From Shigella phage phiSD1, in the sequence record PQ571306: a DNA stretch of 42,072 bases; one strand, written 5' to 3'. Position numbers and translations under genes: made by a program. The notes beneath the pieces are model-generated. The model was not told the DNA's origin. It ran no database searches and worked only from the letters and a program-made list of their open reading frames with translations. Shown in pieces: positions 28,086-28,202 of this stretch; position 1 is the first letter of the stretch; every line of letters starts with the position of its first letter.

Positions 28086-28108
28086 AGCCCTCTACGGAGG
28101 GCTTTTCT
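28086..28108 (+). terminator. Rho-independent terminator (agccctc-tacg-gagggct-tttt)
   Basis: 7-bp stem plus T-run. Confidence 0.6.
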
Positions 28109-28200
28109 GTACATCCCGCCTAATCCCCTTATATAATCCCTTTAGACGCGTAGGGCGCGTCTGATGCGCTCTGATGGTCAGACGCATATGCAAGGGGATT
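28108..28200 (+). promoter_or_regulatory. terS upstream region: candidate promoter TGTACA-N18-TATAAT plus nested palindromes
   Basis: Outer arms CCCCTT/AAGGGG enclosing AGACGCG-taggg-CGCGTCT and ATGCG-N14-CGCAT. Confidence 0.4.
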
Positions 28201-28202
28201 CT

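Follow-up and report, generated by a model that had tools for sequence, protein, structure and literature searches.

A conserved two-hairpin RNA motif in the 5' leader of the packaging operon of Kagunavirus-group phages and their relatives

The DNA analyzed here, referred to as the window, is a stretch of 42,072 nucleotides from Shigella phage phiSD1 (record PQ571306). It is the whole genome of a phage of the Kagunavirus group (Guernseyvirinae), assembled circularly, and its first 141 nt are the same as its last 141 nt. The small terminase subunit (TerS) has 100% identity to that of Escherichia phage SZH-1, the window DNA is about 88% identical to that of K1G/K1H-type phages, and the phage is a virulent, headful-packaging siphophage. 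The leader with which we are concerned falls between a plus-strand cluster of small open reading frames, a NinH-like gene (27568-27804) included, and the packaging genes. The latter also lie on the plus strand and begin with terS (28203-28748; 181 aa), which is annotated as terminase small subunit in the records of relatives, followed by terL (28745-29995), which matches Terminase_6N and Terminase_6C, and, 3' of terL, by the portal gene (30007-31500). The parts of the leader region are likewise on the plus strand.

The small-ORF cluster is closed by an intrinsic terminator at 28085-28107, composed of the stem AAGCCCTC/GAGGGCTT, the loop TACG and a T-run (TTTT). This stem has been kept through compensatory change in relatives: it reads AAGCCCGC/GCGGGCTT in Jerseyvirus, where TC/GA is replaced by GC/GC, and AGCCCGCC/GGTGGGCT in Dhillonvirus. 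A terminator-finding tool was positive in the phages Smarc3 and Envy and made no call at 28085-28107 of the window, because the stem there takes up part of the T-run.

Immediately downstream is a predicted sigma-70-type promoter (28108-28137) with the -35-like element TGTACA (28108-13), an 18-nt spacer and the -10 box TATAAT (28132-37). It agrees with the consensus at 10 of 12 positions and is the top promoter-like site within 3 kb, its -35 element being weak (TGTACA, 18-nt spacer). The corresponding promoters have an extended -10 (TGtTATAAT) in Dhillonviruses and the form TTGCCT-17-TATAAT in Smarc3. All 34 unique leaders carry the heptamer TAyAATC, and the promoter position is conserved; changes in the potential pairing partner of the hexamer are uncompensated, from which we take the hexamer to be conserved for its role as a -10 box. 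From the usual distance between a -10 box and a start site, transcription is predicted to begin at A28144, which is 7 nt past the -10 box and is the first base of the stem of hairpin 1. In every lineage an A is found 7-8 nt 3' of the -10 box and hairpin 1 begins 0-3 nt further on, so that with a start at A28144 hairpin 1 would form the extreme 5' end of the message. The single RNA-seq study of a Kagunavirus concerns coarse timing, not 5' ends.

Two adjacent hairpins follow. Hairpin 1 (28143-28163) has the stem AGACGCG/CGCGTCT with flanking U-G pairs and the triloop AGG at 28152-54, and its loop has the family consensus y(A/U)GGG. Hairpin 2 (28164-28187) is composed of a lower stem ATGCG/CGCAT, a bulged C at 28169, an upper stem TCTGA/TCAGA and a TGG loop at 28175-77; its apex GATGGTC (28173-79) reads as GA-UGG-UC in RNA. 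When 28080-28215 was folded as RNA, a free energy of -51.2 kcal/mol (z = -3.8) was obtained and none of 200 shuffled sequences folded as well. It comprises the terminator and a three-way junction formed around the two hairpins by pairing of AAUCCCCUU with AAGGGGAUU. Two other candidates in this segment were rejected: an alternative hairpin (28157-64/28178-85), considered as a conserved switch, is broken by a compensatory change in hairpin 2 of Jerseyvirus, and a boxA-like CGCTCT within hairpin 2 is not conserved.

Most of these features had been pointed out in an earlier, sequence-only reading of the window, and all that it listed are present at the coordinates it gave. The terminator it placed before terS is present with stem and T-run, and what it called a possible promoter, TGTACA-N18-TATAAT, is found at 28108-28137. 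The perfect hairpin AGACGCG-tAggg-CGCGTCT occupies 28144-62, and the CTGATG repeat is part of TCTGATG, present at 28160 and at 28170. The element described there as ATGCG-N14-CGCAT (28164-87) turns out to be the second hairpin, a 10-bp stem with a single bulged C and the TGG loop.

Downstream of hairpin 2 are the Shine-Dalgarno (SD) sequence AAGGGG (28192-97), a 5-nt spacer and the terS ATG at 28203-05, of which the SD and the ATG are conserved among relatives. We have placed the terS start at ATG 28203, 5 nt 3' of its SD, while many GenBank records use the in-frame ATG at 28164. The latter was ruled out because substitutions between the two track the structure and not codons, and because, in the phiEap-2 lineage, an insertion or deletion of 1 nt puts ATG 28164 out of frame with ATG 28203. 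A common annotation error, by which the terS start has been set inside hairpin 2, is thus put right.

The leader was found in 49 IMG/VR relatives retrieved by way of TerS, and a GenBank blastn search located it in 443 Guernseyvirinae-type and 154 Dhillonvirus phage records. Beyond Kagunavirus, eight lineages have the same architecture (Jerseyvirus, phiEap-2, St162, Smarc3, Dhillonvirus, its L191 variant, L107 and L148), and the distant carriers include Serratia phage Smarc3, Enterobacter phage phiEap-2, Salmonella phage St162, the metagenomic L058/L107 and L148, and Dhillonviruses such as Envy. The order shared by all is terminator, TAyAAT, 5-8 nt, hairpin 1 with y(A/U)GGG, hairpin 2 with GA-UGG-UC, SD and ATG. 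The first version of our pattern scan for the leader gave mostly chance matches and was filtered for hairpins; the tighter pattern gave 26 matches, 22 of them real. No IMG/VR relatives were found with Smarc3 TerS as a query. A covariance model scored the leader of the window at 66.4 bits, with the next match at 9.5 bits, and detected one copy each in the window, Envy and Smarc3, in each case directly 5' of terS. In Rfam 15, no family matched any part of the window at the gathering threshold, and with permissive thresholds 28050-28260 gave sub-threshold chance matches only, the best being isrB on the upstream terminator (22.9 bits; threshold 35).

The stems differ extensively among lineages and the pairing is retained. 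Hairpin 1 is built from AAGGCCC/GGGCTTT in Smarc3, AGATGGC/GCCGTCT in Dhillonvirus, GATGTGC/GCACGTC in L107 and AGGTGGT/GCCACCT in L191; the Jerseyvirus leader has G-U wobbles in hairpin 1 and an A-U pair in place of a C-G pair in hairpin 2. In an unfitted MAFFT alignment, 88.3% of the cells assigned to the stems are paired, as compared with 72.7 +/- 1.3% after shuffling (none of 500 shuffles as high) and with 17-59% in slid controls, and 14 of the 18 pairs have changed on both sides (six of eight in hairpin 1 and eight of ten in hairpin 2). At alignment columns 32/42, for example, a pair of hairpin 2 is C-G in 12 rows, A-U in eight and G-C in three. The loops are nearly fixed: GATGGTC occurs in 33 of 34 unique leaders, the lone exception being GATGATC, and the two WGG triloops, with fixed closing pairs, are separated by a constant loop-to-loop distance of 17-18 nt. 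Folding of single sequences gave the same two hairpins with AGG and UGG triloops for 25 of 26 unique sequences. In all 23 variants tested the sense strand gives a more stable fold than the antisense strand (by 5.1 kcal/mol on average, with 53 G-U pairs), which shows that the folding molecule is the plus-strand transcript and that the element is one of RNA. Our statements on structure are based on the single-sequence folds and the unfitted alignment, not on an alignment derived from the covariance model; realignment with the model brought no gain in register where hairpin 2 has its lower stem, and from this realignment RNAalifold recovered hairpin 2 only.

The leader has been kept while the identity of the proteins behind it falls to 25-37% for TerS, 41-56% for TerL and 29-81% for portal. 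In Smarc3, TerS has effectively been replaced and the leader retained, most of the structural proteins being 60-80% identical. We conclude that a conserved two-hairpin 5'-leader RNA motif, previously uncatalogued, stands at the head of the packaging operon.

A further pairing concerns the ribosome-binding site of terS. The outer arms CCCCTT and AAGGGG, which had been noticed as enclosing the palindromes, are real; they lie at 28125-30 and 28192-97, the second being the terS SD itself, and belong to a 14-nt inverted repeat (28122-35/28187-200) that is 86% complementary. In a second arm pairing, 28131-43 faces 28192-204. There are two anti-SD copies, TAATCCCCTTA (28121-31) and TAATCCCTTTA (28134-44), of the shared form TAATCCC(C/T)TTA; they overlap the -10 box together with the discriminator, and their complement lies at 28187-28204. 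These left arms sit 5' of the predicted start at 28144 and would therefore be present only in RNA reading through the terminator. For the window, RNAduplex gave p = 0.009 against shuffled arms, and the accessibility of the ribosome-binding site was calculated as 0.57 in the promoter's own transcript versus 0.32-0.34 in read-through RNA. The read-through value of 0.34 compares with 0.48 +/- 0.09 for shuffled upstream segments, of which 8% were as low. With this control the effect stands out only in Kagunaviruses (0.01-0.085) and in one Dhillonvirus lineage (0.04), being clear in that lineage and in a single Kagunavirus variant (0.01), and the SD-sequestering helix is no better than composition-matched shuffles in Jerseyvirus, phiEap-2, St162, L107, Smarc3 and the L191 Dhillonvirus variant. 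Because the outer helix fails the control in these six lineages it cannot be the conserved function, and sequestration of the SD as a family-wide feature was dropped. The outer-arm pairing is a lineage-specific extra, relevant only to read-through RNA.

Taking these results together, we consider it probable (about 65%) that terminator, promoter and structured leader constitute a module which opens the packaging and structural block, and that its RNA acts in cis on the late message as a 5' stabilizer and as a docking site for a factor, gating of read-through being an addition in Kagunaviruses. In this scheme, the terminator at 28085-28107 would stop upstream transcription and host sigma-70 RNA polymerase would initiate near A28144 from the promoter with TATAAT at 28132-37. 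The first 45 nt of the RNA would fold at once into the two adjacent hairpins with their fixed WGG triloops (AGG; GA-UGG-UC), after which a single-stranded SD and then the terS AUG would emerge. A paired 5' end is a known guard against 5'-end-dependent decay, and the base-paired end of the long late mRNA may protect it in this manner against RppH and RNase E. The invariant loops would in addition dock a conserved, probably host, factor that tunes the expression of terS and of the late operon. In Kagunaviruses, RNA of the promoter region (AATCCCCTT / TAATCCCTTT) may pair with the SD-AUG region, with the consequence that leak-through transcripts would be poorly translated and those started at the promoter, which do not have the pairing arm, would remain open to ribosomes.

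The function of the conserved core would thus be that of a 5'-terminal stabilizer, of a docking site for a host factor, or of both. The constant position of hairpin 1 at the predicted +1 suits stabilization. Stabilization alone is an incomplete account, since a generic 5' stabilizer needs neither invariant loops nor a second hairpin; the constancy of the WGG loops, of the GA-UGG-UC apex and of the loop-to-loop distance argues for specific recognition. We searched for a small phage protein common to the window, Envy and Smarc3 as a possible dedicated partner and found none in these three genomes, which makes a host component the more likely partner.

Several other explanations of the same RNA have been weighed. 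The leader may be a translational operator, in which a protein, possibly a dimer, binds the WGG loops, blocks or promotes binding of the 30S subunit and so sets the level or timing of TerS. The two triloops with fixed closing pairs and constant spacing fit such a site, as does the position of hairpin 2, whose base is 3-10 nt from the SD and borders the ribosome footprint on its 5' side in every lineage. However, with loops that do not change and a TerS identity that drops as low as 25%, TerS is hardly likely to be the ligand, and the search in window, Envy and Smarc3 gave no conserved small RNA-binding protein of the phage. The binding consensus of CsrA is GGA, and CsrA-type recognition was rejected, the loops being AGG and UGG. 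We regard a translational operator as unlikely; this reading overlaps with the factor-docking part of the preferred one. Slightly less likely still is a compact RNA resembling put, the nascent hairpins of which would bind host RNA polymerase (as with HK022 putL and the zinc-binding domain of beta') and make it resist pausing and termination over the late region of about 23 kb. Two adjacent stem-loops starting from +1 of the predicted sigma-70 transcript, with invariant loops, covarying stems and no dedicated phage partner common across the lineages, would suit that role, and the late regions contain sense terminator-like hairpins in the window (31506, 33293 and 34159), in Envy (29935, 24242 and 20493) and in Smarc3 (16579). 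On the other hand, terminators after major structural genes are often merely leaky, and within the late region there are further promoters, of a distinct type that is repeated (e.g., at 33852). The leader, moreover, occurs once per genome as against putL plus putR, measures 45 nt as against about 73 nt, does not have the long bulged stems or the triplex, and has no sequence relation to any Rfam family. The idea that two WGG-triloop hairpins form a minimal factor-independent RNA, half the size of put, which docks host RNA polymerase in the manner of put or else the ribosome during its own synthesis, is in our judgment similarly speculative and quite unlikely. Were it true, a 45-nt RNA acting without any regulator encoded by the phage would control the whole packaging and structural programme in about 600 virulent coliphages and Salmonella phages with sequenced genomes. 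The invariant G-AUG-GUC in the loop of hairpin 2 might, alternatively, start a short upstream ORF with a Met-Val peptide, the translation of which opens hairpin 2 and is coupled to terS. Both AUG and GUC are invariant, the lone variant GAUGAUC retains the AUG, and in the window a 10-codon frame ends in a UGA overlapping ATG 28203 (AUGA). Against this stand the absence of an SD at a usable distance, a peptide that is unconserved past MV, and a varying length and stop: five codons in Jerseyvirus, phiEap-2, St162 and L107, eight in Smarc3 and 15 in Dhillonvirus, with an in-frame fusion to terS in L148. As the frames vary in length and stop and have no SD, a leader peptide is highly improbable.

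Recognition of the locus as double-stranded DNA has also been considered. The sequence-only reading had called the palindromes a candidate pac or regulatory site, and its regulatory half stands, given the conserved terminator, the promoter and the structured RNA element. For the pac half, terminase would bind the palindromes through TerS and the headful series would start here. In the model phages P22, SPP1 and P1, pac lies in or beside terS, which counts for this reading, and the phages of the present group package by headful with a pac somewhere (PMC10783031, PMC6776780). Against it, a recognition site in double-stranded DNA would be expected to show the reverse of the pattern observed, namely stems that covary, with G-U pairs on one strand only, and loops that stay fixed. 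No co-evolution with the DNA-binding domain of TerS was seen: the N-terminal part of TerS does not align, and the loops and layout are invariant, the element being unchanged where TerS is 25-37% identical. The GenBank record of Smarc3 marks pac at nucleotide 1, which is 5.4 kb upstream of the leader, and PhageTerm gave no obvious termini for the Kagunavirus fBC-Eco01. The opening of GenBank records at terS is a convention (PMC9022532), and record starts at TATAAT or just past hairpin 2, considered as mapped ends, were likewise set aside as conventions of orientation. A pac function of the palindromes is accordingly very unlikely. Operators for a dimeric repressor, overlapping +1 to +45, would explain the presence of two inverted repeats just 3' of the -10 box. 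Their half-sites vary and their central spacers are fixed, however, which is the reverse of operator behaviour; the G-T "pairs" become A-C on the opposite strand; and the evident operator-type repeat of the phage, GTGAATAGTACCCTATTAT, differs and is absent at the leader. We give this explanation hardly any weight.

In work on biocontrol of E. coli and Salmonella, Guernseyvirinae (Kagunavirus, Jerseyvirus and their kin) and Dhillonvirus rank with the siphophages that are isolated most frequently. A 45-nt motif that is more conserved than the terminase behind it and absent from Rfam provides an easily mutated handle on late-gene control in these phages. If its loops bind RNA polymerase or the ribosome, it would add a small new example of a phage late operon governed by RNA alone, and synthetic biology would gain a compact part. 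The result is also a caution that palindromes close to terS should not be called pac without covariation analysis.

Comparison with known systems shows which parts of the leader are familiar. SPP1, P22 and P1 have pac sites that are double-stranded DNA bound by TerS, and SPP1 pacL overlaps the promoter region of gene 1. The leader resembles these in its location at the 5' edge of a small-terminase gene of a headful phage, and is unlike them in covarying as RNA independently of the TerS sequence. Lambda nut boxB, in which a short hairpin close to the beginning of a long phage operon combines a constant loop with a changeable stem, may be a further parallel. The leader differs in having no boxA and in having triloops instead of GNRA-like pentaloops, and no arginine-rich protein like lambda N was found. 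The 5'-terminal stem-loop of the ompA 5' UTR, said to have been described by Emory, Bouvet and Belasco in 1992, reportedly stabilizes this E. coli mRNA. The leader is alike in that a hairpin opens 0-3 nt from its predicted 5' end in all lineages, a stabilizer of this kind having its stem begin no more than about 4 nt from the end of the transcript. Stabilizers of this type are largely independent of loop sequence, whereas the loops, the second hairpin and the spacing of the leader are strictly conserved.

HK022 putL and putR are processive-antitermination RNAs of about 73 nt composed of two stem-loops with long bulged stems and a triplex (PMC9378689). Two adjacent stem-loops right after the predicted start and no evident protein partner are points in common; judged by the description of put, the leader is set apart by its length of about 45 nt, its stems of 8-10 bp, its one bulge and its triloops. 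In the T4 genes e (lysozyme), soc, 49 and I-TevI, the promoter is located inside the 5' arm of a hairpin that sequesters the ribosome-binding site (PMC3014915). The window is similar to gene e in that its left arms overlap the -10 box (28132-37), and transcripts from its own promoter would not carry the arm and would leave the ribosome-binding site open. It differs in that the promoter is of sigma-70 type and not a T4 gp55 late promoter, that a terminator lies directly 5' and two conserved hairpins lie between the arms, and that statistical support for the sequestering helix is confined to Kagunaviruses and a single lineage of Dhillonvirus. The leader thus combines known controls, namely a terminator-promoter junction, a 5'-terminal hairpin and, in its lineage, T4-like gating, with a pair of invariant loops that these systems leave unexplained.

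The leader appears to move together with terS rather than with the gene upstream of it. In the Dhillonvirus Envy (locus L207), a gene for an SbcCD-like exonuclease (35044-36186) lies directly 5' of the terS leader, whereas in the window the corresponding gene (40496-41626, minus strand), which is 73% identical, is found within the tail region on the opposite strand; the leader has thus travelled with terS and without this neighbour. The packaging module that follows (28203-31500) was compared with the loci L038, L050 and L074, and it is a mosaic. Identities between the window and Jerseyvirus are 81% for TerS, only 54% for TerL and 76% for the portal protein, and those between the window and Serratia phage Smarc3 are 25%, 56% and 81%, respectively.

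Two in-frame starts of terS can be proposed in the window, at 28164 and at 28203. The upstream ATG or GTG, a codon inside hairpin 2, is the terS start in many GenBank records, examples being L052 (St162), L053 (SZH-1) and records beginning 39 nt 5' of terS. The ATG at 28203 is favoured over 28164 by the position of the Shine-Dalgarno sequence, by substitutions that follow the structure, and by an indel of 1 nt in the lineage of phiEap-2. Several genomes of Dhillonvirus isolates (L168, L196, L198, L205 and HK578, NC_019724) have their first base exactly at the TATAAT of the leader promoter or their last base exactly at the final base of hairpin 2, and these record ends were probably taken over from the orientation of a reference genome or from an upstream ATG. 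Positions 1-141 of the window recur without change at 41932-42072; the 141 nt shared by the two ends are an assembly overlap, and the window is therefore a complete, circularly assembled genome, 41,931 bp long.

In Smarc3 (L208; MT980832), a "pac site" was annotated by the depositors at nucleotide 1, 5.4 kb upstream of terS, with the gene for an AAA ATPase on one side and a DUF3310 gene on the other; no sequence homologous to this region was found within the window. In two environmental phages with distant TerS (L059 and L060), TATAAT is followed by the hairpin GCGGATCGAAAGAGCCGC with the U-run TTTTTT, a Shine-Dalgarno sequence and terS; the leader in that position is of another kind and resembles an attenuator.

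The structural gene block of the window contains small opposite-strand genes (31530-31697 and 33386-33730, in the regions 31506-31870 and 33293-34178). Hairpins that resemble bidirectional terminators border these genes (at 31506-25, 33293-313 and 34159-78), and a comparable reverse-oriented gene, gp39, is present at the equivalent place in Envy (29146-29935). A 21-nt motif, GTGAATAGTACCCTATTATAT, occurs at five distinct sites in the window against zero expected: 112-132 (= 42043-63), 17840-60, 17884-904 and 21308-28 (these three on the minus strand), and 33852-72 (plus strand). The terS promoter of the window is without this motif. Containing the inverted repeat AATAG..CTATT and overlapping promoter-like -10 boxes, the motif looks, by its appearance, like a class of regulated promoter or operator. 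For the Kagunavirus fBC-Eco01, a "phage promoter" consensus has been reported with the use of PHIRE, and the motif of the window agrees with it.
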